This document shows, one piece after another, positions 93-31,195 of a DNA stretch of 64,000 nt (positions are counted from its first letter, which is position 1; the number at the start of each line of letters is the position of its first letter). The notes below the pieces were generated by a model. The model worked only from the letters and a program-made list of their open reading frames with translations, did not search any database and was not told where the DNA came from. Both the position numbers and the translations under genes were made by a program. This stretch comes from a virus: positions 32,001 through 96,000 of the IMG/VR virus record IMGVR_UViG_3300037478_000708. One strand, 5' to 3'.

Positions 93-3000
93 ATGCCGAA
101 GAACATCCAAGGGCTGACGGGCGAGATCGTGACGTACATGATGCGGGGGCGCCGCACGCCGTCGGATCTCCGGACGCACTTTCGCCTGTCCGTCAAGACG
201 GCGCAGCACGTCTACGACCTCGAGCCCGACGCCTTCGGCCCCTCCGGTAGGGGCCGGCAGTGGTACCACACGCAGGTCGGGGCGCTCCTCAAAGCCCCGG
301 ACGCGTTCGAGGCGGAGATCCCTGCGACCCCGCACCGGTCCAGCCTGAACGAGGTCGCCGCCGGGGCGCTGCGCGCTTCCGTGAGCCCGCTGGCCGAGCA
401 CGAGCTGTCCGAAGGCATCGCGGACACGCATCAGGTCAAGATCGCCACGCGCACGCTGCAGCTCTCGGCGATGGGCGCGAAGATCATGGGTGGCATGGAC
501 CACGCGGGCGCGGTCAAGGTGCTCCGCGCGAACGGCTGGCCGGACACGAAGATCAAGGCCGCCCTCAAGAAGCACGGCCACGCGGACCCCGACGTCAAGA
601 AGTGGCTCGGCGAGTCCAGTGACACGCTGTCACTGGACGAGGCCCGTCCGGAGCCGATCAAGGTCCCCGAGACGGTCTACAAGGAGAAGCTCGCCAAGCT
701 GTCGTCGAAGGACAAGGAAGCGCTGCGCAACGTGACGATGGCGTCGCGTGGAGACCACCGGCTGTTCAAGCCGCTGGACGCGGACGGCGCCGCACTCATC
801 AAGCGGCTGTTCGGCGAGGTGACCGAGACGCACGTCGGACGCGGGCCGCAGAAGCGGGAGAGCGCCGCGGAGGGTGCCGGTGTAGGAAGTCCGTCGCGCA
901 CCGGCTCGCACGCGATCGTCGAGGGTGTGCTGCGTGTGAACGACCGCATTCGCGAGCGCGAACTGCTCGGGGAAGCCGGCGGCGCGGGTCAGGAGGCCCC
1001 GAAGGATCCGAAGTGGGGCACGCCCTACGGCTTGCCGATGCTCCACCCGAGCGGGACGGCGATTCGCATGCGCCGCAAGGGGCAGCGCGTTCGTTTCTTC
1101 GACCTGAATGGCAAGCAGGTCGGCCCCGAGCACGCCAACGTTGCGCCGGCCGTCGCGTGGGCGATGAGCAAGGGTTTCGTCACGGAGAGCGTCGACGAGG
1201 CCGGCAAGCCGCTCAAGGTGAAGTGCGGGCAGTGCGGCAACGTCTTCGCGACCAACAAGGACTACCCCAAGTGTCCGAAGTGCGGCAGCAAGGACGTCGA
1301 CCTGCCGGAGTCGGTCGACGAAGCCGCGAGCAAGACGGTGCTCGGCAAGTACAAGCAGAAGACCGTCACGCTGCGCGACTACGGCGATGGAGACGTGGAC
1401 ATCCTCGTCGGGTCGCTGGCCGTGCCTCTGGACACTGCGAAGAAGAAGGGGATCGCGCCTCCGAAGAATCCGCGTGACCTCGCTCAGGTGAGCGCGTTCT
1501 TGGACAAGGCGCTCCCGATCCTGTTCCCGGCGAAGGCGGGGTTCTCGATCGAGTCCGTGGACGAGGCGTCCGGGACCACCGTTCGCGCGGCGGTGCGGCT
1601 CGACTGGTTGAAGGGCGCGACTGCGGGCGTCACGCCGGACGAGAAGGTCGTGGTCTTCCGCTCGTCCGACTACGACAACAAGGGAACCGTCAGCGGTTCC
1701 TACGCCGTTCTCGGGCGCTCTTCGCAGCGCGACCTGTTCTCGTCGCTTCACCTCGAGTGGAACTCCGGCTTCACCCTCGACCGGGGGCAGCACGCGCAGA
1801 ACCGCAAGCGGGCGGAGCAGGCGTTCAAGAAGCTGCCGACCAGCGAAGCCAACGACGACAAGACCGACGACCTGCCCGCGAAGGCCGAAGCCGACCTCAA
1901 GGCCAAGGCGAAGGAGATGGGCGCGATCAAGGTCTCCGGCAAGGGCCCGAGCGTGAACGCGACGTTCGACGACAAGAAGAAGGCGCAGGCGTTCCTCGCG
2001 CACGCCGAGAAGGTCGGCAAGGCCGCGATGCGCCGCTCGGGCGACGAGGAGTACACGGTTCACATCGACGAGTCGGTCGAGCGGTACGCGGGCGCGAAGA
2101 TGGTGGGCGGTTCCGGGGCGGTACCGTTCAGCGCGCTCAAGGTGGGCGCTCAGTTCCGCTTCCCGAAGTCCGACGAGATCAACACGAAGACCTCGGAGGC
2201 GGGCAGCTACAAGACGGCGAACGGACGCAAGTTCAAGACGGGCAAGCACGCGGCGGTCATCCCCGCGAAGTCGGACGAGTCGCTCGACGAAGCCGCCGGA
2301 ACGATCGTGCGGACCTTCTCCTCGGGGTACGTGGCGCTCCGCCTGCCCAGCGGCATCACCGTGCTCGCGCGGGACACGGGGGATGGTGAGCCCATCGCGC
2401 ACGCGAACGTGGCGCAGGCCAAGAAGGGTCTCGCCCGGTTCCTGAGCGCGAACCCCTCGGTGAACGCTCGCGTGCGCGACGCGAAGCGGCCGTTCTACAT
2501 CCTCGTCGAGGACGTCAGCGAGAGCCTCGACGAAGCCGCTCCCAAGAAGAGCAAGGGCCACATCGCGTTCCTCGGCGACTTCGAGTACCTCATCGTCGGT
2601 ACCGACCTCGCACGCGCTCCGATCAGCAACGTCATGGACGTGCGCACGGGGAACCGCCTCGCGCGCTTCGAGGCGACCAAGGCGGCGGCCGACACCGCGA
2701 TGAAGATCGCGTTCCAGGCGTTCGGCAAGCCGGTCGACCCGAAGGCGATGCAGCGCATGCGCAAGCTCCTCGGAGAGAGCCTCGAGGAAGACATCGACGA
2801 GGATGTGCGTCCCGGGCAGATGTTCGTCGTCGTCGACGTGTCGGTGCGCGGCGGGAAGATGATCGGCGAGATCTACACCGGTGCGGCGAGGGCCGACGCG
2901 GCGGCGAGCAAGCTGAAGGCGCGTGGGCAAAACGTGCAGGTCATCGACGCGCTCTGGTACGAGCCCGCCCGTCAGAAGCTCATCAAGTCGGGGCTCGTCG

Positions 3001-6000
3001 GGGAGGACGCGGAGCCCCGCGTGCTCGCACTTGGGGACGGTCGCTATGCCGTCGATCTGGGCGAAGGCGAGGCGCTGGTCAAGATCGTGGACACGCTCGA
3101 GGAAGCGATCGACGAAGCCGGTCGTCTCGCGGTCAAGTGCATGGAGTGCGGAAAGAAGTTCAAGACCGCTTCCATGCTCCCCGACTGCCCGAAGTGCGGC
3201 GGTTCGGACATCGAGCCCGACTACGACGCGCCCTCCGCGAAGAAGAGCTACGCGGCCGGCAGGACGCGCAAGCGTTCCGTCGGACACGAGTCGATCATCG
3301 AAGGCGCCGTGCCGAAGGTGGGCGATCGCGTCGCGCTTTCTCGCGACCACCTCCGCGGCACCGGCAACCAGACGGGTACCCTGCCGCAGTTGCGGGGAAC
3401 CGTGACCGCGGTCAGCGGTGCGGGCATCGCGACCGTCGACTGGGGTCGCGGGGTGAAGTCCCCGCGCGTGAACGTGAAGAACCTCGTCGTGCTCGGCAAG
3501 GGCGACAGTCTCCCCGTGGAGTCCGCCGACGAGGGGCTCGCGCCGCTCGAGGTCACCGTCACGGACGTCTTCGACAACGGCGCGTGGTGTCACCCGCGCT
3601 ACACGGTCAACGTTCGCACGAACAACAACGAGGACTACACGTTCGGCATGTTCGAGCCCGGCACGGAGCCCGCGGCGCTCCAGACCGTCGAGGACTTCCC
3701 GAACTTCACGAACTTCATCAAGGGCGCCGCTCGCCCCGGCGAGTACATGGAGCGCGTCGAAGTCGCCGCTCTGCCCGACGTGCTGCGCACCCAGCTCCAG
3801 ACGCTTCTCGCGCGGGCCGACACCTACGACCGCACGATGGAGTTCGATGAGGCCGCCGACGAGTCGGCGATCCGCAGCTTCGACGTCATGGCGCAGATGC
3901 GCTGGGAAGAGACGCTCAAGCCCGGCGCGAAGGTGATGGTCTACTGGACCGCGGGCAGCTTCGGGCACTACCAGGGGAAGGCCACGGTCAAGTCGCTGAA
4001 CAAGTCGAGCGTGACTGTTACGCTCGACCACGATGTTCCCGATCGGAGCCGTCTCGGTGGCGCCGGTTACGCGAAGGGCAAGAAGATCAACGTGCCGCGC
4101 GTCATGGCGAACTACGGCCGCAACACGTGGTCGATGGGCTTCAACGCGGTGCACCCGCTCGGCGGGCCGCAGGCGTTCATGGAGGGCGCGGTCGACGAGT
4201 TCACGAGCGCGGCCGTGCCTTCCGTCGGCAACCTGCATCCCTGGGCGCATCCCTACGGCAGCGAGGTCGAGTTGATGGACGAGCCCGACGAACTGGACGA
4301 CGAACAGCTCGACGCGCGCGGCAACATCGAGCCGATCGACGAGGCGATTCAGCCGACGGTTGCGGGCTTCCGGATGTTCGTGGTCGGTGCGCTGACGCAG
4401 TGGGACAAGCAGCAGGAGGTGCGCGCGTCGAAGAAGCCCGGCGGCAGTCACAGCCCCTACGCGCTGTCGCTCTACCTCGAGGCGCTCCACCGCGGGGAGA
4501 AGAGCAGCACCATGCGCGGGGTGAAGCCCGACTCGATGGATCCCGAAGATCTGCGCAAGTTCGCCAAGATGCTCGGCGAGCAGTTCTTCTCCGACATGCC
4601 CCCGATCCGGAAGACGCTCAAGGCGATCGACGCGTACCTCGCGTCGGGCAAGGCGCCGAAGTACCCCGGCTCGAGCAGCCGCTCACTTCGGAGCGAATCC
4701 CGCGATGAGACTGCACGTCTCGCCAAGGGGCTCGTCTACACCGCGGTCGCCGCGGCGGAGGACGGCCGGCTGACGGAAGCCGTCGCCAAGCTCCGGGCCG
4801 CGGGCGAGACGCTCGACGAAGACGCCCTCGAGGGCCTGCTTCCCGAAGACGTCGTGGAAGCGCTCAACGAGTGGGCAGACGAGAACGACGTCGACGACGC
4901 GATCGTCGAAGGCTACGCGGTCGCGCTTCGGCTCGGCCTGGACGACCACGTGTACGGCCTCGACGAAGCCACCTCGGCGGCGAAGCTGCTCGACACGGCC
5001 GACAGCAAGCTCATCTCCGAGCTGCGCAAGGGACTCGTCAAGGTCGGCGCCGCCGCCAAGGAAGCGAAGCGCGGTCAGGCCGAGATGGAGAAGCGTCTCG
5101 GTGTGGGCAAGAGCACGGCCAAGGATCAGCTCAAGATCGTGGTCAAGGAACTGGAGGCGTACCGCACCCTGCTCGATCAGATCATCAAGCAGGCACAGGT
5201 GGCCGAGAGCGTCGACGAAGACCTCGCCGAAGCCGGGTCGCTGCACGACGCGCTCCTGAACCACTTCGTCCGCAACCGCGGGCGCTCCTACACGGCGAGC
5301 GAGATCGCGCGGCTCTTCTCCGCGTCCACCGCGGAGTCGATGAAGACGCTCTCCTCGCTCGTCAACGAGGGCACGCTCATGTTCCGGCGCGGCGAGGGCT
5401 ACTCCCTGCGCGGCAATTCGAGCGCGCTGCGCATCCCCGCCAGCCTGCACGGTTCTCGCGTGGGCAACTTCGTGAACCAACGCACGGAGGAGGCGGAGTT
5501 GGACGAGGTGCGCAACTCCGGTCGCCCGACGAACTGGCGGGGCAGCGGCGAGGCGGGTCGAGACGCTCTCCAGGCCCGCGGTTCGGCGAAGACCAAGGCC
5601 CGCTTTCAGGTCACGCAGCTCGTGGCCAAGAGCGGCACGACGCCCGCGGTGCTCGCCGACGTGTCGAAGCTCTCCACGTCGATGCCGGCGCTCAAGTACC
5701 GGGGCAAACCGGGCGAGAGCTACGACATCGTGTACAAGGGCCGGGTCATCGGCACGCTGCGCTCGTCAGGGAGCGGCTCGCTGCCCTGGACGGTCAAGCG
5801 CAAGGACGGCACCAAGCTCTCCGACGTCGGCTTCGGCTCCGTGCACCACGCCGTCACGCGCGCCCTGGCCGACGCTCTCGGCGACGCCTGGGGCAACGCG
5901 GAAGAGTCCGCGGATGGCCTTGGTGAAGGACTGGGGCGCAAGGTCTTCTACACCCGGGATGGCGTCGGTTCGTCGAAGTACACCGTCAACTACCACGATG

Positions 6001-7811
6001 GGAAGACCACGCATTCGGACGGCAGCCCGTTCTACGGGATCTTCGTTTTCCCGAACAAGGCGAAGCGCGACCAGAAGATCCGTGAGCTTTTGAAGCAGGG
6101 CTACGAAGAGGTCAGCTCTGCGGTTCACGAGACCACGACCTCCGGCACGGTCGGCGGCTACCGCCGCGGCAAGCTCGAGCAGCCCGAGAACAAGGGCCGC
6201 ACGGGCGGCATCCGCGACGACGGCCCCGGCAAGAAGGGACCGCGTTCGGTGTGGTCGCCCGACGCCATCGCCAAGGTGCTCGAGCAGATGCGCGAGGCTC
6301 TGCCCGGCCACTCCGACGAAGAGCTGCTCGAGCTGCTCGACGAGGCCCCCGAGGAAGGCGCCCGGAAGGACGTCACCGTCTTCGGGGACGGCAAGGGCAA
6401 GTGGTTCGTGGCGGATCCCTTCGGCAAGCAGGAGCGCTACGCCACGAAGACAGAGGCCGTCCAGGCTGGTCGGGATCTCGCGCAGCACGAGAACTGGGGC
6501 TTCGTGGTCAGCGACCCCGACGTCACCCTCGCGAGCGAGTCGATCGACGAGGCTCCCGAAGACCTCCGCGAGATCGATCCCGTCGACACCATCCAGCGGG
6601 GAGACAAGGTGACGATCCTGATCCCGGCCGGGCTCGGCAGGCAGGGGCAGGAGTGGAAGCCCAAGGCGGGCAAGGCCGTCATGCGCGGTCCGCACGGGTG
6701 GGTCCTCAACATGGGCGGTGCCCACGGAACGCCCGGCGTCGCCTCCTCGCGCAACATCGTGAAGGTGCAGCGCGGCGGGAAGACGCTCTACCACAACCCC
6801 CGTCCGGATGTGCTCGGCGAGTCCGTGGACGAGGCGGGTGCGGACAACCGGCGTCCGGTGAAGCTCGGGCCGATCGAGAAAGAGCTGCTCATGCAGCTCC
6901 GCGAAGAGCGCGGCAAGCACGGCATCGAAGAGCTGATCGCCGCGAGCCCGATGCTCAAGAAGCTCCCGTATCAGGACGTGCTCGTCGCCGCGCAGAATCT
7001 CGCGACGCTCGGTCTCATCGGCGGCAACGGCCGCGGGATCGTCCTGCCCTTCGGCGAGTCCGAAGACGCGGGTCTCGACGAGGCGTCCGTGCCGGTCAAG
7101 GGTCACGACACGGTGACGGAGGTCGGCTTCGCCCGCGGCACGTACTACTACGTCTCCAAGAGCGGTCTCAAGAACTCGGTCGCGGTCAAGCGCAAGGACC
7201 GTGCATCCGCCCGCGAGCGGTTCCGGCAGATGCTCCGCAACGAGGCGAACGTCAAGGACGCCGACGCGCTCATCAAGCAGATCGACGCCAAGCTCGGCGA
7301 GTCCCGCCAGTGGGCGCGCTACGAGGTGCAGCTCGACGAAGAGTTCTTCGATCGCTACGACGCGCTTGGCATCGAGCGGCCCGATCCGAAGACGATGTGC
7401 CACGGTCAGTGCGAAGGCACCGGCTGGGTGCCGATCGGGCCTCCCGAAGGCCGCGTGCCGGAAGGCCGTCTGTTCTGCCCCGCCGACAACGAGGAGCCGT
7501 GGCGTACGCTCTGGCTCGAGGCGGAAGAGAAGGATCCGACCGACGATGGGTACCACATCGTCAAGTGCCCCGACTGCGAGGGCACGGGCAAAGATCAGGG
7601 CGACGCCTCTCACGGCGAGCGCCGCCGAGCGCAGAAGACGGAACGCACCACGATCGAGTTCCCCGAGTCCGCCCTGGAGACGTACGTACTCGCCGCGCAG
7701 GCCGCGGGGCTCGCGGAGGACGATCCGTGCTTCGTCTTCGAGGACGGCCGCTTCACCGCGGAGCTGCCCGCCGACGTGGCCCCGCGCATCATGGAACTCG
7801 TCGCTCAGTGA
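93..7811 (+). CDS. Giant modular protein (2572 aa); putative capsid-packaged polyprotein with repeated ES[VLI]DEA linkers
   Basis: Long ORF with strong GC3 bias. ES[VLI]DEA at nt 1185, 1308, 1551, 2277, 2520, 6537, 6819 plus many variants separate 35-140 aa modules (Zn ribbons, wHTH-like, SH3/KOW-like, DUF2188-like). CDS is secure; function is inferred. Confidence 0.8.
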   Translation: MPKNIQGLTGEIVTYMMRGRRTPSDLRTHFRLSVKTAQHVYDLEPDAFGPSGRGRQWYHTQVGALLKAPDAFEAEIPATPHRSSLNEVAAGALRASVSPLAEHELSEGIADTHQVKIATRTLQLSAMGAKIMGGMDHAGAVKVLRANGWPDTKIKAALKKHGHADPDVKKWLGESSDTLSLDEARPEPIKVPETVYKEKLAKLSSKDKEALRNVTMASRGDHRLFKPLDADGAALIKRLFGEVTETHVGRGPQKRESAAEGAGVGSPSRTGSHAIVEGVLRVNDRIRERELLGEAGGAGQEAPKDPKWGTPYGLPMLHPSGTAIRMRRKGQRVRFFDLNGKQVGPEHANVAPAVAWAMSKGFVTESVDEAGKPLKVKCGQCGNVFATNKDYPKCPKCGSKDVDLPESVDEAASKTVLGKYKQKTVTLRDYGDGDVDILVGSLAVPLDTAKKKGIAPPKNPRDLAQVSAFLDKALPILFPAKAGFSIESVDEASGTTVRAAVRLDWLKGATAGVTPDEKVVVFRSSDYDNKGTVSGSYAVLGRSSQRDLFSSLHLEWNSGFTLDRGQHAQNRKRAEQAFKKLPTSEANDDKTDDLPAKAEADLKAKAKEMGAIKVSGKGPSVNATFDDKKKAQAFLAHAEKVGKAAMRRSGDEEYTVHIDESVERYAGAKMVGGSGAVPFSALKVGAQFRFPKSDEINTKTSEAGSYKTANGRKFKTGKHAAVIPAKSDESLDEAAGTIVRTFSSGYVALRLPSGITVLARDTGDGEPIAHANVAQAKKGLARFLSANPSVNARVRDAKRPFYILVEDVSESLDEAAPKKSKGHIAFLGDFEYLIVGTDLARAPISNVMDVRTGNRLARFEATKAAADTAMKIAFQAFGKPVDPKAMQRMRKLLGESLEEDIDEDVRPGQMFVVVDVSVRGGKMIGEIYTGAARADAAASKLKARGQNVQVIDALWYEPARQKLIKSGLVGEDAEPRVLALGDGRYAVDLGEGEALVKIVDTLEEAIDEAGRLAVKCMECGKKFKTASMLPDCPKCGGSDIEPDYDAPSAKKSYAAGRTRKRSVGHESIIEGAVPKVGDRVALSRDHLRGTGNQTGTLPQLRGTVTAVSGAGIATVDWGRGVKSPRVNVKNLVVLGKGDSLPVESADEGLAPLEVTVTDVFDNGAWCHPRYTVNVRTNNNEDYTFGMFEPGTEPAALQTVEDFPNFTNFIKGAARPGEYMERVEVAALPDVLRTQLQTLLARADTYDRTMEFDEAADESAIRSFDVMAQMRWEETLKPGAKVMVYWTAGSFGHYQGKATVKSLNKSSVTVTLDHDVPDRSRLGGAGYAKGKKINVPRVMANYGRNTWSMGFNAVHPLGGPQAFMEGAVDEFTSAAVPSVGNLHPWAHPYGSEVELMDEPDELDDEQLDARGNIEPIDEAIQPTVAGFRMFVVGALTQWDKQQEVRASKKPGGSHSPYALSLYLEALHRGEKSSTMRGVKPDSMDPEDLRKFAKMLGEQFFSDMPPIRKTLKAIDAYLASGKAPKYPGSSSRSLRSESRDETARLAKGLVYTAVAAAEDGRLTEAVAKLRAAGETLDEDALEGLLPEDVVEALNEWADENDVDDAIVEGYAVALRLGLDDHVYGLDEATSAAKLLDTADSKLISELRKGLVKVGAAAKEAKRGQAEMEKRLGVGKSTAKDQLKIVVKELEAYRTLLDQIIKQAQVAESVDEDLAEAGSLHDALLNHFVRNRGRSYTASEIARLFSASTAESMKTLSSLVNEGTLMFRRGEGYSLRGNSSALRIPASLHGSRVGNFVNQRTEEAELDEVRNSGRPTNWRGSGEAGRDALQARGSAKTKARFQVTQLVAKSGTTPAVLADVSKLSTSMPALKYRGKPGESYDIVYKGRVIGTLRSSGSGSLPWTVKRKDGTKLSDVGFGSVHHAVTRALADALGDAWGNAEESADGLGEGLGRKVFYTRDGVGSSKYTVNYHDGKTTHSDGSPFYGIFVFPNKAKRDQKIRELLKQGYEEVSSAVHETTTSGTVGGYRRGKLEQPENKGRTGGIRDDGPGKKGPRSVWSPDAIAKVLEQMREALPGHSDEELLELLDEAPEEGARKDVTVFGDGKGKWFVADPFGKQERYATKTEAVQAGRDLAQHENWGFVVSDPDVTLASESIDEAPEDLREIDPVDTIQRGDKVTILIPAGLGRQGQEWKPKAGKAVMRGPHGWVLNMGGAHGTPGVASSRNIVKVQRGGKTLYHNPRPDVLGESVDEAGADNRRPVKLGPIEKELLMQLREERGKHGIEELIAASPMLKKLPYQDVLVAAQNLATLGLIGGNGRGIVLPFGESEDAGLDEASVPVKGHDTVTEVGFARGTYYYVSKSGLKNSVAVKRKDRASARERFRQMLRNEANVKDADALIKQIDAKLGESRQWARYEVQLDEEFFDRYDALGIERPDPKTMCHGQCEGTGWVPIGPPEGRVPEGRLFCPADNEEPWRTLWLEAEEKDPTDDGYHIVKCPDCEGTGKDQGDASHGERRRAQKTERTTIEFPESALETYVLAAQAAGLAEDDPCFVFEDGRFTAELPADVAPRIMELVAQ
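614..638. repeat. Dispersed palindrome copy 1
   Basis: GTCCAGTGACA-CGC-TGTCACTGGAC, 11-bp perfect arms, inside the giant ORF. Confidence 0.9.
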
Positions 7812-7825
7812 CACGCTGTCACCGG
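7806..7825. repeat. Dispersed palindrome copy 2
   Basis: CAGTGACA-CGC-TGTCACCGG; contains the TGA stop (7809-7811) of the giant ORF. Confidence 0.85.
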
Positions 7826-7837
7826 TTGACCCGGGTG

Positions 7838-7867
7838 TAGACAGGTGCCCACGCAGGTCTTTACTAT
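7838..7867 (+). promoter_or_regulatory. Putative promoter (TAGAC class)
   Basis: TAGACA-N18-TACTAT, upstream of AGGAG and ATG 7911. Confidence 0.6.
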
Positions 7868-7910
7868 CTCCCTCGACACACGGTCCGCAGATACGCCCTA
7901 GGAGCCACGT

Positions 7911-9356
7911 ATGCCGATTCAGTTCAAGCCCAAGTCCTCCAAGCAGGAGGAGGAGCGGACCTCCGCCGAGCGGAGCCTCCTGCTCTTCACGGAGTCCGGC
8001 GAGCTGACCCTGGCGGGCCAGACGATCGCCGACTTCCTCGAGACGGTCGACTTCGAGGACGTCACCACGTCGCCGGAGGCGGAGGCGTTCCTCTTCAACC
8101 CCGACGTCACCGCAGACGATCCCTACGCCGACCTCGCGGAGGAGGGCGACGAAGAGGACGGTGACGAGGAGAAGGTCGCCGCGGACGCCGACGACGAGGA
8201 GGAAGACGACGAGGAGGAGGAAGACGACGACGAGGACGCCGACGAGAGCGCGCCGCAGGTGGTCCTGCCCGGCGAGGTCGCCGCTCGCCTGGCCGACATG
8301 GACGACCTGTCGGAGATGTTCGGCTTCTACCTCGACAAGCTCGGCGAGAAGGACGAACTCACGCTGAGCGAGAAGGCGACGCTCGCGGTCTTCGCGGACT
8401 ACCGCGACGACGAGGGCGGGCTCACCGACGAGGGCAAGCTCGCGGTCGCCAAGCACCTCGCCGCGGTGCTCTCCGAGGGCATGCTCGTCGAAGACGCCGA
8501 GTTCATCGACGAGAAGTTCCTCTCCAAGGGCCAGCGGATGAAGCGCGCGCGCATCGCGCGGAAGCCGAAGGCCGGCAAGAAGCGGATGGAGCTGAAGAAG
8601 CGCCGCAAGAAGCGCAAGCGCATGAAGGCCAAGGTGCTCCGCCAGGAGCGCAAGTTCCGCCGCAAGCGCAAGACGCGCCTCAAGATGCTCTCCCGCGAAC
8701 GCTCGTCCCACGAGGGCAGCGGCGAGAACGGCAAGGCCGAGGGTGTGATGATCTTCGGTCACGCGACCGGCATCGACGGCGCGGACTTCCGCGCGAGCCT
8801 GGCCGAGACGCCCGACCTCGAGTTCACCCGGGACGATCTCATCGCGCTCGACGCGCAGATGGGCAACGTCGTCGAGTGCCCCGAGTGCGAGGCTTCGAGC
8901 CCCTTCACGGCGCTGCTCGCCGTCGACGAGAAGAAGAAGAAGATGCCGCCGGCCTTCCTGAAGAACATCAAGGGCAAGAAGGGCAAGAAGGACGCCGACG
9001 GCGACAACGACGGCTCCGAGAAGGGCGAGAAGGACGAGGCCGCCGACGAAGCCGTCTCGCTGACGTGCCCGAAGTGCGAGCACGAGTTCCCCGTCGACGA
9101 GGCACGCGAGAAGCTCAAGGGGGCGAAGTACAACCACCCCGCGGCCAAGAGCGCGCGTGCGTCGGAGGCTCTGGCCAAGGAGACCTCCAAGGAGAAGGCC
9201 GCCGCGAAGAAGACCGGCAGCAACGAGTCCGCCGGTGGGCCGTTCTCGATCGTCTCCGGGCGCCCCGACCTCAGCGAGGGCCACAGCCTCGCGGCGCGGT
9301 CGCTCGGCGCGATGGGTCGGCTCAAGCCGAAGCCTCTCACGGAGGCCGCCGACTAG
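7911..9356 (+). CDS. Putative prohead core / scaffold-type protein
   Basis: Very acidic N-half with a D/E run, a dense K/R block (MKRARIARKPK...KKRRKKRKRMK) reminiscent of T4-like gp68 core proteins, two CxxC pairs and many [VLI]-x-E sites. Confidence 0.5.
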   Translation: MPIQFKPKSSKQEEERTSAERSLLLFTESGELTLAGQTIADFLETVDFEDVTTSPEAEAFLFNPDVTADDPYADLAEEGDEEDGDEEKVAADADDEEEDDEEEEDDDEDADESAPQVVLPGEVAARLADMDDLSEMFGFYLDKLGEKDELTLSEKATLAVFADYRDDEGGLTDEGKLAVAKHLAAVLSEGMLVEDAEFIDEKFLSKGQRMKRARIARKPKAGKKRMELKKRRKKRKRMKAKVLRQERKFRRKRKTRLKMLSRERSSHEGSGENGKAEGVMIFGHATGIDGADFRASLAETPDLEFTRDDLIALDAQMGNVVECPECEASSPFTALLAVDEKKKKMPPAFLKNIKGKKGKKDADGDNDGSEKGEKDEAADEAVSLTCPKCEHEFPVDEAREKLKGAKYNHPAAKSARASEALAKETSKEKAAAKKTGSNESAGGPFSIVSGRPDLSEGHSLAARSLGAMGRLKPKPLTEAAD

Positions 9357-11526: not shown

Positions 11527-11646
11527 GTGACGCACAAGGCACCCGTCAACGGCCGGCTGCTGCCGAAGACATCGCATGCTGCGTGCGTCGCGGCTGCGCG
11601 GAAGCGTGGGTACGTCCGACCGCGGACGACCCGTGGCAAAAGCTAA
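11527..11646 (+). CDS. Possible small basic protein (39 aa)
   Basis: GGGAGG about 10 nt before GTG; overlaps the start of the next gene. Confidence 0.3.
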   Translation: MTHKAPVNGRLLPKTSHAACVAAARKRGYVRPRTTRGKS

Positions 11647-12859
11647 GAAGCGCAAGACCGAGAAGTACGCACGCGTGACGATCGAGCGGCACGCGCTCGA
11701 GAGCATCGTCGACGCCGGCTACAACCCCCGGCTCATCTCGCAGGAGGCGCTCGACGGCCTGTCGCAGAGCCTCGTCGACCTCGGTCTCCTGACGCACCTC
11801 GTCGTCAACCGAACGCGCGAGGGCCTCGTGCTGGTCGGGGGACATCAGCGCCGCCGGATCCTGCGCGAGTCCGGCGTGACCGAGGTCGACTGCATCGTGG
11901 TCGAGTTCGACCCCGACCGCGAGAAGCACGCGAACTACAGCCTCAACAACCGCGAGATCCAAGGCGAGTTTGTTCCGGAGCTGCTCAAGTCCGTGCTACA
12001 GCGGATCCGGGAGAGCGTCGGAGACGACCACAAGAAGCTCTTCGCGCGCCTGCGGTTCGACTCGCTCTACCGCTCCGTCCTGCGCCAGCTCGCTCACGTC
12101 GAGCCGAAGGCGAAGGGCAGCGTGACGCGCGGCAAGGTGCGCGACGACGACATCCCGAACCTGTCGCGCACGCGAGCGGTCTCCGAGGACGGGCAGCTCT
12201 ACGCGCTCGGCGACCATCGGCTCTACTGCGGCAAGGTGACGCAGCCGGGGAGCTTGACGGTGTTCGACGTCGAGCGCGCGGACATGGGCTTCCTGCGACT
12301 CTGCCAGGACGATCCTTTCACGTCCGAGTTTCTGGAGGTCGTGCTCGGGCACCAACTTCAAAACACGGAGGGGGTGGTCTACGTCGCGGGTCACTTCGAT
12401 TCGATCGCCGACGTGCAGGGTGCCTTCGAGGCGATGGGCGGGCACTGGAGCAACACGCTCATGTTCTTCCCGAAGGAGGCGAAAGGTCGACGCGACGATC
12501 CCTATCGCGACGTCGTGGTTCCGGTGCTCTACGGCTGGCGGGAAGGCTCCGATCACGGCTTCTACGGCGGGCGTCGACAGGCGAACGTGGCGCACCTCGA
12601 GGGGCTTCCACCGAAGACCGACGTCGCCGTCGAGATCGTGCAGCTCGCGATGGAGAACAGCTCGCGGCCGGGAGACGTCGTGCTCGACGCGATGCTCGCT
12701 CACGGCGCAACCCTGATTGCCGCCGAGAAGCTCGGTCGCAAGCTCATCGGCTACGTGCACTCGGCGCGCGAAATGGATCGCATCCGTCACCGGTGGACGC
12801 GGTTCGTGCACGGCCCGCGCGCTGACTGGCGCAAGAAAACCACGGAGGTACCGACTTGA
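11633..12859 (+). CDS. ParB-N domain + degenerate N6/N4 DNA methyltransferase-like domain
   Basis: YNPR, LVGGHQRRRIL, LGDHRLYCG, ENSSRPGDVVLD...TLIAAEKLGRK. Lacks DPPY and FxGxG. Confidence 0.75.
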   Translation: MAKAKKRKTEKYARVTIERHALESIVDAGYNPRLISQEALDGLSQSLVDLGLLTHLVVNRTREGLVLVGGHQRRRILRESGVTEVDCIVVEFDPDREKHANYSLNNREIQGEFVPELLKSVLQRIRESVGDDHKKLFARLRFDSLYRSVLRQLAHVEPKAKGSVTRGKVRDDDIPNLSRTRAVSEDGQLYALGDHRLYCGKVTQPGSLTVFDVERADMGFLRLCQDDPFTSEFLEVVLGHQLQNTEGVVYVAGHFDSIADVQGAFEAMGGHWSNTLMFFPKEAKGRRDDPYRDVVVPVLYGWREGSDHGFYGGRRQANVAHLEGLPPKTDVAVEIVQLAMENSSRPGDVVLDAMLAHGATLIAAEKLGRKLIGYVHSAREMDRIRHRWTRFVHGPRADWRKKTTEVPT

Positions 12860-15324: not shown

Positions 15325-16569
15325 ATGCCGGCGCAGATCAGGACGGAGTTGGAGGTCGCGAAGCTCGATCTCCGCAGACTTGAGTTCGCGGCCTACAACC
15401 CGCGGACCATCTCCGCCGAAGCGCGGCGGGGTCTGCACGAGTCGCTGGAGTCGCTCGGCCTGCTCGAGCTGCCCATCGTCAACGTGCGCCACGACCCTCC
15501 CAGGATCGTCAGCGGGCACCAACGGGTACGGGAGCTACTCGACGCCGGCTACACGCACTCGGACGGCGTTGTCGTGCGCATGGATGACACGGCCGAGATG
15601 GTCGCGAACGTCGCGCTCAACAACCACGCCGCGCAGGGCACGTTCGACCCGGTGCGCGCGCTCGCGAACGTCGAGAGGGTTGCGAAGACCTTGCCTCGCC
15701 CCGACTACACGCGCTTCGAGCAGCTCAGCCAGAAGCTCCGCGAGCAGGCGCGTAGGGCGCAGGCCAGCTCGAACCCGCGGGCCGAAGACGCCGTGTCCGA
15801 AGAAGCGGAGGCGGCTGACTCGGAGATCGGGCAGGTCTACTACCTCGGCGAGAGCGTGCTCTACTGCGGTGACTACCGAGACGGGCTCGCGGCCATTCTC
15901 AAGCGCAAGAAGGTCGACGTCGCGATCACCGATCCGCCGTACAACATCGCCTACACGAGCGGGAAATGGTTTCGCAACGACAAGCTGCGCGAAGAGATCG
16001 AAGGGGATGAGCAGGATCCCGCTGCTTGGACGGAGTTCGTGCGGGACTTCTGCGCGGCGCTCCTGAAAACGGTCAAGGGTGCGATCTACCTGTTCACGGC
16101 TGCGCAGGAGATGCACGAGGTTCAATCCGCCTTCGTGGAAGCCGGCGGAGACGTGCACCGCTGGATCGTGTGCGCGAAGGACGCGCATCCGCTGTCGCCG
16201 AGCGACTACCACCCGCAGTACGAACTCGTGCTCTACGGAGGTCGCGCGCGCACGGAGGTCGCCTACTTCGGGAAGGCGAAGACGAACGTCGTGCCCACGA
16301 AACGTCCGACCAAGAACGAGCTGCACCCGGCGCAGAAGCCGGTGAAGCTCATTCGCGAGTTCGTCGAAGACTGCACCGACGTCGGTGACACGATCCTCGA
16401 CCTCTTCGCGGGCTCGGGCACCGTGCTCTGCGTGGCCGCAGAGCTAGAGCGCATCTGCTACTCCTGCGAGATCGACCCGGCGAACTGCGACAAGATCCGG
16501 AGGCGCTGGACCGAGCAGGTGCACGGGAAGGGAGCGGACTGGCGAAACCTGACGCAGGTGAAAGTGTGA
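15325..16569 (+). CDS. ParB-N domain + N6/N4 DNA methyltransferase (beta class, motifs intact)
   Basis: YNPR, IVSGHQRV, TDPPYN, HPAQKPVKLI, ILDLFAGSGT, CEIDP. Confidence 0.9.
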   Translation: MPAQIRTELEVAKLDLRRLEFAAYNPRTISAEARRGLHESLESLGLLELPIVNVRHDPPRIVSGHQRVRELLDAGYTHSDGVVVRMDDTAEMVANVALNNHAAQGTFDPVRALANVERVAKTLPRPDYTRFEQLSQKLREQARRAQASSNPRAEDAVSEEAEAADSEIGQVYYLGESVLYCGDYRDGLAAILKRKKVDVAITDPPYNIAYTSGKWFRNDKLREEIEGDEQDPAAWTEFVRDFCAALLKTVKGAIYLFTAAQEMHEVQSAFVEAGGDVHRWIVCAKDAHPLSPSDYHPQYELVLYGGRARTEVAYFGKAKTNVVPTKRPTKNELHPAQKPVKLIREFVEDCTDVGDTILDLFAGSGTVLCVAAELERICYSCEIDPANCDKIRRRWTEQVHGKGADWRNLTQVKV

Positions 16570-17042: not shown

Positions 17043-17058
17043 CAGCGTGTCACTGGAC
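17034..17058. repeat. Dispersed palindrome copy 3 (opposite loop orientation)
   Basis: GTCCAGTGACA-GCG-TGTCACTGGAC; contains stop 17040-17042 and abuts ATG 17059. Confidence 0.9.
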
Positions 17059-17703
17059 ATGCACCACCTCACATCGGAGGTTGCCTTGATCGACTGGAAT
17101 GACTACGCCGCGAGCGCGATGCGCACCGCGGTCGACTACCCCGGCCGGGGAATGAAGCTCGGATTGCTCTACACGACGCTCGGCCTGCGCGGAGAGAGCG
17201 GCGAGGTCGTGGAGCAGGCCAAGAAGCTCCTGCGCGACGACCACACGGCGATGACGGACGCGCGGCGACAGGGGTTTCTGGGTGAGCTGGGAGACGTGTG
17301 CTGGTACGCCGCGGCGGTGGCGAGCGAAGCGCGACTCAGCCTGGGCTACTGCCGAATCAAGTCACCGCTCGACGCGTCCGCTCTGGACTATCCCCTGCGC
17401 GGGTCGGAGATCGGGCTCTGCGCTGCGTCCGCTCGGCTGCACTCGGCGTGCGCCAAGGTCGGGGACTTTGCGTTGACGGTCATGAGCTACGCCGTAGCTG
17501 ACGGCGAGCACTGGTACGACGTCAGTCAGGGGCGCCGCGTGCGCGGGCTCGTGGCGACGGGGCTCGGTCAGGTCATGTTTTGGGTCGGAGCTGTCGCGGA
17601 AGAGGCGGGCTTCACACTCGATCTGACGCTGCGGACCAACCTCGCCAAGTTCGCGTCTCGCAAGGACCGCGGCGTTCTTCACGGCGACGGCAGCACTCGC
17701 TAA
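17059..17703 (+). CDS. MazG-like nucleotide pyrophosphohydrolase
   Basis: LGLRGESGEVVEQAKKLLRD...ELGDVCWY; C-terminal NLAKFASRKDRGVLHGDGSTR. Confidence 0.85.
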   Translation: MHHLTSEVALIDWNDYAASAMRTAVDYPGRGMKLGLLYTTLGLRGESGEVVEQAKKLLRDDHTAMTDARRQGFLGELGDVCWYAAAVASEARLSLGYCRIKSPLDASALDYPLRGSEIGLCAASARLHSACAKVGDFALTVMSYAVADGEHWYDVSQGRRVRGLVATGLGQVMFWVGAVAEEAGFTLDLTLRTNLAKFASRKDRGVLHGDGSTR

Positions 17704-20248: not shown

Positions 20249-20667
20249 AGAACCCGCTCGGGTTCCTCGCTCCTCAACGTGGACGCGCGCCGGTGCCGTC
20301 GCAGTTGCCGGGACAGTTCTTCGTGCTGGAGTACGACCGCGAAGCGGGCGCCTTTCGCTTGCATGTAGACGACGCGGATCACAGTACCTACGATCTGCCC
20401 GACGACAGCGCCTCCCTCCAGACGCTCTTCCGAGCCCTTACGACCTCCGCAGGAGTACCTCTACAACCGACGCAGATCGACCGCACGATCGACATCGCTC
20501 GCGAGCTGGGGATGGCCCAGTACATCCCGACGCCCGGCGAGCTTGTCGAAGACCGCGTGCTCTCGATCATTCCCCGCGGCCCGTCGCAACAGGGGCTTCA
20601 GTTCGATGAAGACGAAGACCAAGAAAGCTGGCTCGCGAGCCTCCGGCCTCTCGGAAGCCGCCGCTAA
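20245..20667 (+). CDS. Hypothetical protein
   Basis: GTGA overlap with the previous stop. Confidence 0.55.
   Translation: MKNPLGFLAPQRGRAPVPSQLPGQFFVLEYDREAGAFRLHVDDADHSTYDLPDDSASLQTLFRALTTSAGVPLQPTQIDRTIDIARELGMAQYIPTPGELVEDRVLSIIPRGPSQQGLQFDEDEDQESWLASLRPLGSRR
20366..20394 (+). promoter_or_regulatory. Putative promoter for protease/capsid genes (inside upstream CDS)
   Basis: TAGACG-N17-TACGAT. Confidence 0.5.
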
Positions 20668-22222
20668 GCCCCGACTGCTCTGCGAAGGGTGGCTCGAAGA
20701 GGGCTGCGAAGGCACGGATGGCCTGGTCTTCCGTCCCGAGCGCGCCTACGTCGTTCAGCCGGCCGCCGAGGGCACCGACGCCCGTTCCCGCGTCTGGTTC
20801 GCCTACGGGAGCGATCGGCAGCTCGACGAGAGCTTCGGTCCGATGCAGGTCGTCGAGAACTACGACGAGCTGGATCTGGAGGAGCGCCAGGTCGACGGCA
20901 CGACGGTCAAGCTGCCCCGCGGTGGGCGCTGGATCGTCGAAGGGCCGGCGCAGCGCTCGGACGTCAAGAACGCGAACAAGCGGATCTACGGCCGCACGAT
21001 CTGGGAGAAGCTGATCGCCGACCCCAAGTCCTACGTGCAGGAGTCGATCCGCGAGCGGCAGATGGTCGGGCATCTCGAGCACCCGAAGGACGGCCGCACC
21101 GACCTCAACGAGACCGCGCTCCTCACCACCAAGGCCGTCCTACGCGAAGACGGCGTGGTCTGGAACCAATTCGAGCTGCTCGACACGCCGAAGGGTCTCA
21201 TTCTGCAAGAGCTGACGCGCAAGCGCGTGAAGTGGGGCGTCAGCTCGCGCGGGACCGGCACGGTCGGCGACGACGGTCACGTCAGCGAGACCGACTACGT
21301 GCTCAAGACGTGGGACGCGGTGGCGTCCCCGAGCACGCCCGGCGCGCACCCGGCGCTCGTGACGGGCAAGGGCGTGACCGAGAAGAACGCCACGGAGACC
21401 GTCTCCGTGGACGAGGGGGAACTCGAAGCTCTTCTTACCTCCCTGGACGAGCTGGCCGCGACCGACGTCGACGGCCTCTCCGACCGCGCGCGACTCCGTT
21501 CCCAGATCCTCGACACCCTCGAGTCCCTCGACGAGAACATGCTCCAAGCGGTTCTCCTCAAGGATCAGGGCTGGTCGAAGATCAAGCTCGCCCTCGAGAA
21601 GGCGCGCGAGCCGGAGGGCGGAGCGTTCGACGCGGCTATCGAAGAGGCCCTCGCAAGCGGTGAGGGTCAGGATGGTCTGGGCGAGGGGATGGAGGAAGTC
21701 TTCGATTCCCTTCAGGAGCAGGTGTCCGATCTCGTGACCGAGAACGACGACCTGCGTACGCGACTGGAAGCTGCCGAGTCCGCGCGCGAAGCGCAGGCGG
21801 AACGGCTGGCCGAAGCGGAAGGGGAGCTGACCCAACTCAGGGTCGAGCGTGACCTTGCGCGCGAGCTTCTGGCAGAGACCCCGACGCGCAACGTCGGGGA
21901 TGTGTCCGCTGCGGTGGACGAGGTAATCAGCGAAGCGCCCGAACTGGAGCGATTCCGCGATCTCATGGAAGACGCGCAGTCGCCCGAGCAGGTCCGCAAC
22001 TTCGCCGAACGCCTCGTTCCGATCGTCAAGCCGAAGCCCGCTCCGAAGGAGCCGGTGGAGGAGACGGTCAAGCCGAAGCGGCGCGAGCGGACCGCTCTCC
22101 CGGTGGGGATGGCCTTGGACGAGACCGCGAACGTGAAGCGGTCGAAGCCCAGGACCGCGATCGATGAGTCCTCGGGGGCTCGGATCGTGGCGGCCATGCC
22201 TGCCTTCAAGAAGACCTCGTGA
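20606..22222 (+). CDS. Prohead protease (T4 gp21-like) fused to acidic coiled-coil scaffold (gp22-like)
   Basis: KNANKRIY, GHLEHP, LLDTPKG, GVSSRGTG, WDAVASPSTPGA; C-terminal half is acidic coiled coil; directly upstream of the capsid gene. Confidence 0.9.
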   Translation: MKTKTKKAGSRASGLSEAAAKPRLLCEGWLEEGCEGTDGLVFRPERAYVVQPAAEGTDARSRVWFAYGSDRQLDESFGPMQVVENYDELDLEERQVDGTTVKLPRGGRWIVEGPAQRSDVKNANKRIYGRTIWEKLIADPKSYVQESIRERQMVGHLEHPKDGRTDLNETALLTTKAVLREDGVVWNQFELLDTPKGLILQELTRKRVKWGVSSRGTGTVGDDGHVSETDYVLKTWDAVASPSTPGAHPALVTGKGVTEKNATETVSVDEGELEALLTSLDELAATDVDGLSDRARLRSQILDTLESLDENMLQAVLLKDQGWSKIKLALEKAREPEGGAFDAAIEEALASGEGQDGLGEGMEEVFDSLQEQVSDLVTENDDLRTRLEAAESAREAQAERLAEAEGELTQLRVERDLARELLAETPTRNVGDVSAAVDEVISEAPELERFRDLMEDAQSPEQVRNFAERLVPIVKPKPAPKEPVEETVKPKRRERTALPVGMALDETANVKRSKPRTAIDESSGARIVAAMPAFKKTS

Positions 22223-22274
22223 TCCGAGGGCGCCCGCAAGGGCGGCCCTTCAAACGCAAGTACACACTACGACC

Positions 22275-23774
22275 ATGATTCTCTCCAATCAGGGTATCTA
22301 CGAAGGTATCCTCGAAGCAGGGGCGCGTCTCGCGGAGACGCCGGAGGCCGAGGGCGGCTGGGCGGAATACTTCGCCGAGACCGACGAGGCGGACATGCGC
22401 ATCGAGGATCCGATCCTCCGCGCGCAGACCGCCATCCTGCTCGAGAACGCCAAGCGCGAGATGGCGCAGAGCCTCCCGCGCTCCGTCGTGCAGGGGCGCG
22501 TCCGTCTCGACGAGACCACGCGCTCGGCGCTCGTCGGCGGCTTCTCCGACTACCTGTTCCCCATCATCCGCGCCGGGTTCCCCACGAACCCGGTGAACGA
22601 GCTGGTCTCCGTCCAGCCGACGACGCGGCGCACCGCCACGGTCGTCTACTGGAACTGGATCGTCGGCACCAACAAGGGCACGTTCACGCAGGGGCAGAAG
22701 CTCTTCGACGCGAACACCGGCAAGCAGACCCGGGACATCAACTTCTCGAACGAGGTCATCCAGGGTGAGCCCCTCGTCGCGCTCGGCTCGGCCGGCGCAA
22801 CCGCGAGCGGCACGCTGGCCTTCCACGACGGCGGGGGCATCCGCCCCGGCACCGTGGCGCTCTCGCTCCAGATCACGACCGGCCCGGCCACGGTCGTCTT
22901 CGTCGACAACGGCAACGGCGCGTTCATCGGTACCGGCGTGACCATCTCGGCCTCGTCGATCAACTACCAGACGGGCGCGTGGTCCATCACGCTGAACCTC
23001 GAGACGTTCACGACGTCGGCGGCGAACACCGCGACCTACCGCTACGACAGCGAGGGGTCGACGATGACGCCGCAGGTGGACGTGCAGATCGTCACGAACA
23101 CGGTGCAGACCGAGCGCCGTGCTCTGAAGATCAACTACTCGAAGGAGGCGATGCAGGACGTCATGTCCGAGTTCGGCATCTCCCTCGAGCCGAACCTCGT
23201 CGCCGGTGCGGCCGAGCAGATGAACTACGAGATCGCTCGCCAGATCCTCGCGGAGATCTGGCAGGTCGCTCCCGTGGCTTCGTCGTTCGACCTCAAGGTG
23301 CCGTCGGGCATCTCGCAGCAGGAGCACTTCCGCGACCTGATCTTCAACATCCAGACGGCCTCCAACTCCATCTGGGCCCGCACCCAGAAGGCGTACGGCA
23401 ACTGGATCACGGTCGACCAGGGCTTCGCCACGCTGATCGAGTCGCTGCCCGCGAGCCTCTTCGTGCCGGCTCCGATGCCGCCGAGCGTCCACGGCCTGCA
23501 CTTCATCGGCACGCTCCTCAACCGCTTCCGCGTCTACAAGGATCTGCACCTCGACAAGGAGCCGGGCGCCGCGGAGCTGGGCAACATGCTCATGGGCTAC
23601 AAGGGCCAGAACTTCTTCGAGGCCGGTTTCGTCTGGGCTCCGTACCAGCTCATGTACACGACGAACCCGCTCGAGACCGCCGACTTCCTCACGCAGCGCG
23701 GCCTGGCGTCGCGCTACGCGACGAAGATGGTCAACCCGGACATGTACGCCCGGATCAACCTCATCACGACCTAG
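22275..23774 (+). CDS. Major capsid protein (T4 gp23-like)
   Basis: TAILLEN, IIRAGFP...ELVSVQP, RALKINYSKEAMQD, EIARQIL, MGYKG...AGFVWAPY, RGLASRYA. Confidence 0.95.
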   Translation: MILSNQGIYEGILEAGARLAETPEAEGGWAEYFAETDEADMRIEDPILRAQTAILLENAKREMAQSLPRSVVQGRVRLDETTRSALVGGFSDYLFPIIRAGFPTNPVNELVSVQPTTRRTATVVYWNWIVGTNKGTFTQGQKLFDANTGKQTRDINFSNEVIQGEPLVALGSAGATASGTLAFHDGGGIRPGTVALSLQITTGPATVVFVDNGNGAFIGTGVTISASSINYQTGAWSITLNLETFTTSAANTATYRYDSEGSTMTPQVDVQIVTNTVQTERRALKINYSKEAMQDVMSEFGISLEPNLVAGAAEQMNYEIARQILAEIWQVAPVASSFDLKVPSGISQQEHFRDLIFNIQTASNSIWARTQKAYGNWITVDQGFATLIESLPASLFVPAPMPPSVHGLHFIGTLLNRFRVYKDLHLDKEPGAAELGNMLMGYKGQNFFEAGFVWAPYQLMYTTNPLETADFLTQRGLASRYATKMVNPDMYARINLITT

Positions 23775-24975: not shown

Positions 24976-25203
24976 TCATCGCAGGTGCGGAGGGAGCCAA
25001 CGAGGGATGCCCTTCCCCTCGAGGCAGGGTGGGCAGTCCATGTGGATCCAGTACAGGTCGGGTTGGTTGAACCACTCGCCGCAGGTGAGACAGCGCCTCG
25101 GTTGCGGGCGCTCCGTGCGCGGCAGCTCAAGTGCGGGCTTGCGCTTCTTCGCGACCTTGCGAGCAGGCTTCTTGTAGGCGCTGCGCTTCTTGGCGGGGCT
25201 CAT
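24976..25203 (-). CDS. Small basic Cys-containing protein
   Basis: MSPAKKRSAYKK...CLTCG...CPPC; start lies 9 nt from palindrome copy 4. Confidence 0.5.
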   Translation of the reverse strand: MSPAKKRSAYKKPARKVAKKRKPALELPRTERPQPRRCLTCGEWFNQPDLYWIHMDCPPCLEGKGIPRWLPPHLR

Positions 25204-25211
25204 GTCGCTGT

Positions 25212-25232
25212 CCAGTGACACGCTGTCACTGG
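25212..25232. repeat. Dispersed palindrome copy 4
   Basis: CCAGTGACA-CGC-TGTCACTGG in a divergent intergenic region. Confidence 0.9.
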
Positions 25233-25276
25233 CGTTCCGAGGCCGAACCCTACCGCGCGAACGCGCGGCGGGCCTG

Positions 25277-25305
25277 TAGACCCCGCGATTTTCCGCACCT
25301 ACACT
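25277..25305 (+). promoter_or_regulatory. Putative promoter (TAGAC class)
   Basis: TAGACC-N17-TACACT. Confidence 0.65.
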
Positions 25306-25354
25306 GCTCGGGAACCGGCGTGGCAACGCACGCCCAATCCCACAGGAGCCTTCA

Positions 25355-26170: not shown

Positions 26171-26186
26171 TCGGGAGTAGATCGCG

Positions 26187-26966: not shown

Positions 26967-26971
26967 CCCTC

Positions 26972-27583: not shown

Positions 27584-27588
27584 GTCTC

Positions 27589-28230: not shown

Positions 28231-28237
28231 AACGAAC

Positions 28238-28417
28238 ATGGCCAACCGAACCATTCGTCTGCTACAGAAGATCGCGTCGTCTACGCGCCTGACGGTCGCG
28301 TCGCTCTCGAACGAGGTGTCGTTCCTGCGCAACGAGGGCTTGTCGGCCCGCGAGATCGAAGCAGAGCTGCGCGACAAGTACCTCGACGGACCGCGCGCGA
28401 TTCACTATCGGTCGTGA
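28238..28417 (+). CDS. Hypothetical protein (59 aa)
   Basis: MANRTIRLLQKI...AIHYRS* fills the gap between neighbours. Confidence 0.5.
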   Translation: MANRTIRLLQKIASSTRLTVASLSNEVSFLRNEGLSAREIEAELRDKYLDGPRAIHYRS

Positions 28418-28421
28418 GTCC

Positions 28422-30839: not shown

Positions 30840-30844
30840 CGCCC

Positions 30845-31177: not shown

Positions 31178-31195
31178 GGCCCACGAGGAAACGAC

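Follow-up and report, generated by a model that had tools for sequence, protein, structure and literature searches.

A linker-punctuated polyprotein of a T4-headed phage combines a conserved backbone with exchangeable cassettes and may be a precursor of injected head proteins

We analyzed a window of 64,000 bases, 32001-96000 of the IMG/VR virus record IMGVR_UViG_3300037478_000708, which is 156,008 bp long, has 67% GC overall and is rated complete; the window has 65-71% GC, and coordinates below are those of the window unless marked as genome positions. At its left end lies a single open reading frame (ORF), 93-7811 (+), that encodes a protein of 2,572 amino acids (aa), P0002, here called polyprotein 2. 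Frame 3 is open from genome position 31949, just before the window, up to position 7811, with translation probably starting at the ATG at 93. A chance ORF in high-GC DNA was considered and ruled out, as the GC content at third codon positions (GC3) is about 0.90 and homologues are conserved. GC3 is 0.86-0.95 in all modules of the protein (gene mean about 0.90-0.91), and the eight metagenome homologues, 1,140-3,365 aa long, include full-length ones, so that polyprotein 2 is a real gene. Two long antisense ORFs opposite it, 630-4490 (-) with 1,286 aa and 5766-9284 (-) with 1,172 aa, are not genes, being artefacts of the high GC3 on the coding strand.

Polyprotein 2 is split at its module borders by 20 short sites of the form [VILFA]-D-E-x, most commonly E-S-[VLI]-D-E-[AG]. 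The strict version, [VIL]DE[AG], is present in 13 copies, compared to a mean of 0.5 and a maximum of 5 in 2000 shuffles, and ES[VIL]DE in 8 copies, compared to 0.01 in shuffles; the density of the motif is 17 times that elsewhere in the proteome. The linker Ser is encoded by AGC as well as TCN codons, and the remaining linker positions vary synonymously, which argues that selection acts on the peptide. All homologous polyproteins are punctuated by the same linker. Splitting the chain after the linker Glu yields modules M00 to M20, of 41-279 aa each; M16 and M20 hold weaker internal borders, which brings the actual count of units closer to 24.

When the modules are mapped over P0003-P0010 and P0024, a backbone can be told apart from exchangeable cassettes in this family, which comprises eight or more related uncultured phages. 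The backbone keeps a fixed order: M00, the core of M04, M09, M11, M15, M16c, M17, M19 and the C-terminal 55 aa (module coordinates are all on the plus strand). M00 (93..641), which has no Pfam match, is always N-terminal, with 40-54% identity in P0003 and P0005-P0008, and is a candidate capsid-targeting or anchor part. M04 (1566..2291) has a core, at about aa 85-170 of the module, that is found in all relatives with 64-82% identity. Also present in all relatives are M09 (3534..3851), a unit recognized by FDNG..RYTV, with 48-56% identity and 41 invariant columns; M19 (6834..7082), with 38-78% identity; and the tail of about 55 aa (7644..7808), with 64-72% identity and always at the C terminus. 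The backbone modules M15 (5220..5507) and M17 (6345..6551) are taken up below with their folds.

The exchangeable cassettes, whose presence and position vary by phage, are the Zn ribbon, the M18 barrel (6552..6833, with the motif IQRGDKV), the KYTV unit (M16b, 5898..6137, with KYTVNYHDG), M12 (4344..4820) and a zinc unit (7350..7643) with CxxxCxGxG and CxxCxGxG motifs. M18 lies near the C terminus here, in the N-terminal third of P0003, P0005 and P0007, and after M04 in P0004; the KYTV unit is at aa 255-351 in P0007; and the Zn ribbon occupies three different sites in three proteins of the family. M12 and M14 are common to some relatives only, M10 (3852..4199, with LKPGAKV) is common only to P0006, and M01, M03, M05, M07 and M13 occur in this phage only. 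An earlier note on this DNA, made from the sequence before any database search, had placed all the units that it listed correctly. Its PKVGDRV, LKPGAKV and IQRGDKV motifs are found at about 3309, 3915 and 6591, a match to DUF2188 at 6390-6488, and its two winged-helix-like units (M15 and M19) and its KYTV, FDNG and zinc units are where it had put them.

An exhaustive phmmer search of polyprotein 2, covering aa 1075-2274, was run against 1.84 billion representative sequences, giving 1,014 matches with an expect value (E) of at most 1e-3. Among the 150 best representative clusters, 84 match M18 (aa 2193-2261), 53 of these being proteins of at most 160 aa; the KYTV unit (aa 1974-2040) accounts for 47, including 21 short ones, and M12 (aa 1447-1572) for 16, including 4 short ones. 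Small proteins span the modules end to end at 40-75% identity, and the first ~125 aa of M12 match whole free proteins of 118-139 aa. On the contigs checked, P0017, P0055 and P0073 are complete small genes within arrays of small phage-like genes. IMG/VR has 52 loci with the M18 pattern, of which 29 lie in closed ORFs of at most 140 aa, 10 in ORFs of 160-260 aa and the other 13 in ORFs of 383 to more than 1,340 aa. The KYTV pattern has 205 loci there, and among the best 80 it is free in 11 and part of ORFs of at least 300 aa in 52, in phages with a GC content of 0.24-0.62. In sum, the cassettes recur as complete small genes, or in other multidomain proteins, on hundreds of other phage contigs. 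The units that change place are thus those whose free relatives are plentiful.

Plasmids carry some of these units as well. With the whole protein as a query, tblastn gave three plasmid matches, two to KYTV and one to the zinc unit, and a single match among phage records, to M12 in a 485-kb uncultured phage. KYTV matches an annotated 62-aa gene on an Alteromonas megaplasmid, and the zinc unit matches a free 133-aa protein, BCK74020.1, of the Streptomyces plasmid pSP90 (48% identity, E 8e-23). The small free members of the M18, KYTV and M12 families have no Pfam match; M18, KYTV and M12 are three widespread small phage protein families unmatched by Pfam. The proposal that modules of polyprotein 2 have counterparts among stand-alone genes is supported for M18, KYTV, M12, the zinc unit and, as a DUF2188 member, M17, and for the mobile class in general; of these five units, M18 also has a confident model. 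KYTV does occur as a small free phage protein, as the earlier note had it. For the FDNG unit, which the note had described likewise, no free form was found in pattern- or word-limited searches or in the ESM Atlas.

A single-sequence pattern scan of IMG/VR with M09-M12 had no match, the ESM Atlas gave no usable match for M09 or KYTV, and tblastn of all modules against the phage's own genome found no free paralogues. A word-indexed search for shorter proteins was also blank, a result without weight because the same search missed the M18 and KYTV relatives found by the exhaustive one. M18 is rare in cellular genomes: 185,579 species genomes have 5 loci in total. Two of the five are in metagenome-assembled genomes of Acidobacteriota (Solibacteraceae and Bryobacterales; L150 and L153), a weak hint at the host range of M18-carrying phages. 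The ORFs in which KYTV is embedded in IMG/VR (L070-L149) are mostly 300-1,340 aa long, otherwise unannotated and in low-GC phages, with a median GC of 0.33; their partner regions have hardly any Pfam matches, and a scan of ten of the larger ones revealed no informative partner domains.

Cassettes are also combined in other orders. P0054 (227 aa), P0035 (346 aa), P0078 (721 aa) and P0118 (708 aa) pair M18 with M12, the C-terminal part of M08 (M08C) with M18, and M08C with M16a, as if drawn from a common pool of units. One further ORF (IMGVR_UViG_3300020576_004945, L033, 73-4107, at least 1,345 aa) looks unrelated to polyprotein 2 and has an M18 unit right after GGSVDEA, with SESVDEA further along. 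As judged from that ORF, linker-punctuated polyproteins may exist outside the polyprotein 2 family.

The direction in which cassettes travel is open to a reversed reading, with the free genes being modules released from polyproteins, or with both drawn from a common pool of promiscuous domains and no capture at all. The predominance of large ORFs among the best KYTV loci (52 of 80, against 11 free), the 13 large ORFs with M18 and the poor resolution of the M18 tree would all agree with it. However, the free forms, like the other architectures, cover a GC range of 0.24-0.62 and are spread over many more lineages than the eight-member family, and the M18 copy of polyprotein 2 groups with sequences from outside that family, making the reversed direction improbable in our estimation. 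This copy is 68-75% identical to the non-family proteins P0011, P0012, P0013 and P0015, compared to 50-59% for the copies in sister polyproteins. In the tree, a clade with a Shimodaira-Hasegawa approximate likelihood ratio test (SH-aLRT) support of 99 unites the copies of P0003, P0004, P0005 and P0007, the copy studied here falls outside it, and its grouping with free and other proteins has moderate support only. For M18 alone, these comparisons suggest capture rather than release. The GC3 of the KYTV unit, 0.80, is the lowest in the gene (mean 0.91), which likewise speaks against the reversed direction and is a mild hint that the unit is a later arrival from the mostly low-GC phages carrying it.

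Exchange may also account for the two Zn ribbons. Ribbon 1 (aa 408-427 of P0001, nucleotides ~1224-1283) belongs to M02 (1200..1322), a module of 41 aa flanked by two ESVDE|A linkers, and is designated subtype A. Ribbon 2 (aa 1046-1065, nucleotides ~3138-3197), subtype B, is in the N-terminal 42 aa of M08 (M08N; whole module 3117..3533), followed by the PKVGDRV unit, M08C, which has relatives in the multi-module proteins P0035, P0078 and P0118. Both ribbons begin 5-8 residues past an xDE|A linker, and their four-Cys motifs are directly visible. They are paralogous, as had been noticed by eye, with 50% identity over a 30-aa core (E 3.5e-8). In a four-way alignment, M02 and M08N are 38% identical, compared to 60% for M02 and the single copy of P0004, and 71% for M08N and the single copy of P0003. 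Since each ribbon is nearer to another phage's single copy, the pair is better read as two old subtypes exchanged between polyproteins than as the internal duplication first proposed; from these identities, cassette exchange looks more apt than recent duplication in place. Family assignments are marginal: HypA (PF01155) attains 30.2 bits (cut-off 28.9) only as the sum of both ribbons, with DUF7130 at 29.2 bits (cut-off 35) and DUF7129 at 20 (cut-off 30), and the HypA and DUF7130 stretches include M02.

The fold of M18 could be modeled with confidence. The model, built from 56 sequences, is a six-stranded barrel with a predicted local distance difference test (pLDDT) score of 87.5, and confidence is low only at both ends, which coincide with the linkers. 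The best VIA match is the Tip60 chromo-barrel (Z 6.2, root-mean-square deviation 2.8, 64 aligned), ahead of Tudor domains (Z 5-6), Spt5 KOW (5.3), YorP (5.1) and NusG (4.7), all values in a range that the tool calls common. Foldseek found no PDB or BFVD match to the model at E <= 1e-3; the BFVD matches are weak (E 4e-3 or worse) and are to uncharacterised small phage proteins. It is reasonable to place M18, on its predicted structure, in the Tudor/KOW/SH3-like class of small beta-barrels, with no single family assignable. This agrees with the suggestion of SH3/KOW-like units for M18, while the three units so described show no detectable mutual relatedness: in hhalign, M08C and M10 each align to the M18 profile with a probability of ~1%, and M10 has only weak CusF and Tudor hints in Pfam. 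The KYTV model (pLDDT 75) has three strands and a helix; Foldseek found no match, and the best VIA result, Z 5.6 to C-terminal halves of PH domains, is too weak for use. Among PDB sequences, the profiles of M18, KYTV and M12 had no match below E 0.07.

For the two modules thought to be winged helices, the profile matches are sub-threshold. M15 matches Rrf2 in 4/4 orthologues (E 2e-5 to 0.1; best 25 bits, cut-off 30), as well as EutK_C, and M19 matches Penicillinase_R in 2/4 orthologues (15-16 bits, cut-off 22.6). Because of this difference among orthologues, a winged helix is likely for M15, where it would be of the helix-turn-helix type, and only possible for M19. M17 analyzed alone reaches 22.5 bits for DUF2188 (PF09954), just above the gathering cut-off of 22 and covering profile positions 7-41 of 62, in line with its description as DUF2188-like; in the search of the phage's own genome it scores 21.7 bits (E 3.7e-5). 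In Pfam, DUF2188 is a family of small proteins, whereas M17 is embedded between two polyprotein linkers. The zinc unit has the CxxCxGxG motif in common with DnaJ and nothing more, scoring 15.4 bits against PF00684 (cut-off 32.7) with no match in the own-genome search. Pfam scans of polyprotein 2, both whole and module by module, gave Zn ribbon, DUF2188 and sub-threshold winged helix-turn-helix matches only. They found no catalytic domain and no peptidase family, consistent with the expectation that most of its units bind rather than catalyze.

Directly upstream lies a second long gene of the same type. Polyprotein 1, of up to 2,325 aa, occupies genome positions 25113-32087 (L009:113-7087), ends at window position 87 and carries the same linkers (xDE/xEE) together with an AAA_33/Zeta_toxin-like kinase module at aa 733-885. 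The earlier note had assigned the upstream gene a terminal YodL-like domain; no upstream gene in the same frame exists within the window, the last 139 aa of polyprotein 1 have no Pfam match at E <= 0.1, and YodL (PF14191) has no match at E <= 1 across the whole genome. The order of polyprotein 1, polyprotein 2 and a ParB-methylase gene is kept in 7 relatives.

The phage itself is a myovirus with a T4-type head, as judged by its head protease, Gp23-type capsid and tail sheath (31196-33805) genes. The protease gene, 20543-22222 (+) with an uncertain start codon, encodes a prohead serine protease of the T4 gp21 type, matching Peptidase_S77 at E 1.5e-14 (54.4 bits, cut-off 27) and the PHROG head maturation protease at E 2e-31. 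This protease is fused to an acidic, scaffold-like C-terminal half with many xDE sites. The major capsid protein gene, 22164-23774 (+), matches Gp23 at E 2.7e-45. The xDE motif of the linkers also occurs once in the N-terminal region of the capsid protein, as RLDE|TT, and about 10 times in the scaffold-like half of the protease protein.

Further genes and sites surround the polyproteins. Two ParB_N plus N6_N4 methyltransferase genes lie at 11576-12859 and 15325-16569; the former fits the methylase model weakly (28 bits vs 86 bits). A MazG-like gene is at 17047-17703, and the gene order is kept in relatives. No close DNA relatives of the region turned up when phage and plasmid collections were searched with megablast. 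The palindrome GTGACACGCTGTCAC, often inside CCA...TGG, has at least 10 copies in the genome, at window positions 619-633 and 7808-7822 and at genome positions 32, 7335, 19612, 57215, 66391, 89454, 96299 and 121494. One copy is a 15-nucleotide in-frame insert in the M00/M01 linker (609..644; GES-SDTLS-LDEA). The copy at 7808-7822 overlaps the stop codon of polyprotein 2 and is followed by the promoter-like hexamers TTGACC and TAGACA. The palindrome is probably an operator or a promoter-associated site.

Protease and linker together point to a mode of processing. T4 gp21 cleaves after L/I-X-E, a Glu-Ala bond being the first such site seen, and the T4 head is loaded with small proteins for injection, such as the anti-restriction protein IPI (PMC9026906); in giant phages, gp21-related proteases make several cuts in ejection proteins (PMC10052503). 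Given the presence of this protease family in the phage and a linker that fits its rule, including the Ala or Gly after Glu, cutting in the prohead is the most economical reading, and we infer from motif and context that the linkers are cut and the products packaged. Polyprotein 2 would enter the prohead, with M00 and the C-terminal tail possibly serving in targeting, and the phage's own gp21-type protease would cut after the Glu of every linker inside the capsid. The resulting binding proteins of 5-30 kDa (Zn ribbons, winged-helix-like, Tudor/KOW-like and DUF2188 units) would stay in the head and enter the host with the DNA, acting ahead of any phage gene expression. New cargo would be gained when small genes recombine in frame into linkers. 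Taken as a whole, a modular polyprotein that is cut in the prohead, supplies injected cargo and gains cassettes by in-frame recombination is the reading we consider probable.

An alternative is that polyprotein 2 is never cut and acts as a single giant chain, in the virion or in the cytoplasm, with the acidic ESxDEA stretches as flexible spacers. This is the form familiar from polyvalent proteins (Iyer, Burroughs, Anand, de Souza, Aravind 2017; PMC5512222), of which phage examples with up to 15 domains are known. Polyprotein 2 has no embedded peptidase, and the adjoining ParB-methylase genes are the typical company of polyvalent proteins. A spacer, however, needs no six-residue motif, with V/L/I at P3 and Glu at P1, kept across eight diverged phages, nor would it be expected to match the specificity of the phage's own protease family and to recur in the capsid propeptide region and in the scaffold. 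We therefore regard an uncleaved chain as unlikely, if the more serious of the alternatives.

The comparison to polyvalent proteins remains instructive. Like them, polyprotein 2 is one very long chain of a mobile element with many unrelated domains that are also found solo, both are accompanied by ParB-methyltransferases, and for both the proposal is that they travel with the DNA and are freed by proteolytic cleavage (PMC5512222). Unlike them, it has no MPTase, ArdC-N, ParB, methylase, ART or primase domain in Pfam scans, which were run without LPD models; its modules are more numerous (~21-24), smaller and mostly non-enzymatic; and in place of an embedded peptidase, its repeated linker fits a separately encoded head-maturation protease. 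Lacking both the signature domains and the embedded peptidase, polyprotein 2 resembles polyvalent proteins in concept and is not a strict member.

The chain could also be cut and serve mainly as disposable filler of the prohead core or scaffold, its fragments leaving the head without playing any part in the next host. There is precedent in T4 gp22, gp67 and gp68, which are cut into many fragments that leave the head (PMC9026906), and in the propeptides of SPN3US, likewise cut at multiple sites (PMC10052503). Filler of this kind is difficult to reconcile with modules that are folded domains with conserved surfaces, such as M18 with its pLDDT of 87.5, or with free-standing relatives in many other kinds of phage, where a scaffold role is impossible. 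A scaffold-like region is moreover already present, fused to the protease. To our minds there is only a slim chance that filler is the main role.

Among phages that package proteins, T4 is similar in protease and motif, as its internal head proteins (IPI, IPII, IPIII and Alt) and core proteins are processed by an S77 protease at L/I-X-E, with Glu-Ala bonds alike (PMC9026906). In T4, the cargo proteins are separate genes, each with its own N-terminal targeting peptide, whereas polyprotein 2 has about two dozen candidate cargo units on one chain with one N-terminal module and one C-terminal tail. In phiKZ-like giant phages, ejection and inner-body proteins (SPN3US gp53/gp54, the phiKZ inner body) are cut by gp245/gp175, a gp21-related protease that makes multiple cuts per substrate, and a large mass of internal head protein enters the host (PMC10052503), which for the phage studied here is only proposed. 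Their motif is A/S/G-X-E, the cuts chiefly remove N-terminal propeptides (PMC10052503), and no string of independent cassettes with free-standing homologues is described there.

Several points weigh against processing, injection and cassette capture as proposed here. About one-third of the module borders are degenerate linkers (e.g., ADEG, VDEF, LDEV), and processing and packaging are argued solely from motif and context. Polyprotein 2 is encoded 13 kb upstream of the head genes, beside methylase genes and outside the head module, and its small products, once cut, might escape from the prohead in the way that T4 scaffold fragments do. The M18 tree has few columns, and its strong branches alone are compatible with a single origin. 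The sensitive search covered aa 1075-2274 only, and M09, M15 and M19 have relatives only in related polyproteins, a weak negative because those searches were pattern- or word-limited.

A bolder extension, which we rate at somewhat under an even chance, is that this T4-headed lineage uses its maturation protease as RNA viruses use their polyprotein proteases. Two polyproteins, together ~4,900 aa, would be packed and cut into some 40-50 small injected proteins, the linkers would be in-frame docking sites at which small early genes from other phages are captured and swapped, and the cargo would evolve like a cassette array. If the proposed processing and injection are true, they would allow a double-stranded DNA phage to bring in dozens of finished small proteins as infection begins, and to renew that set by simple genetic means. 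With the linker rule, substrates of the protease and borders of modules could be predicted for related uncultured phages. The analysis also gives a handle on the M18 barrel, KYTV unit and M12 families, and the context of a candidate injected polyprotein suggests that they act very early, for example against host defences.

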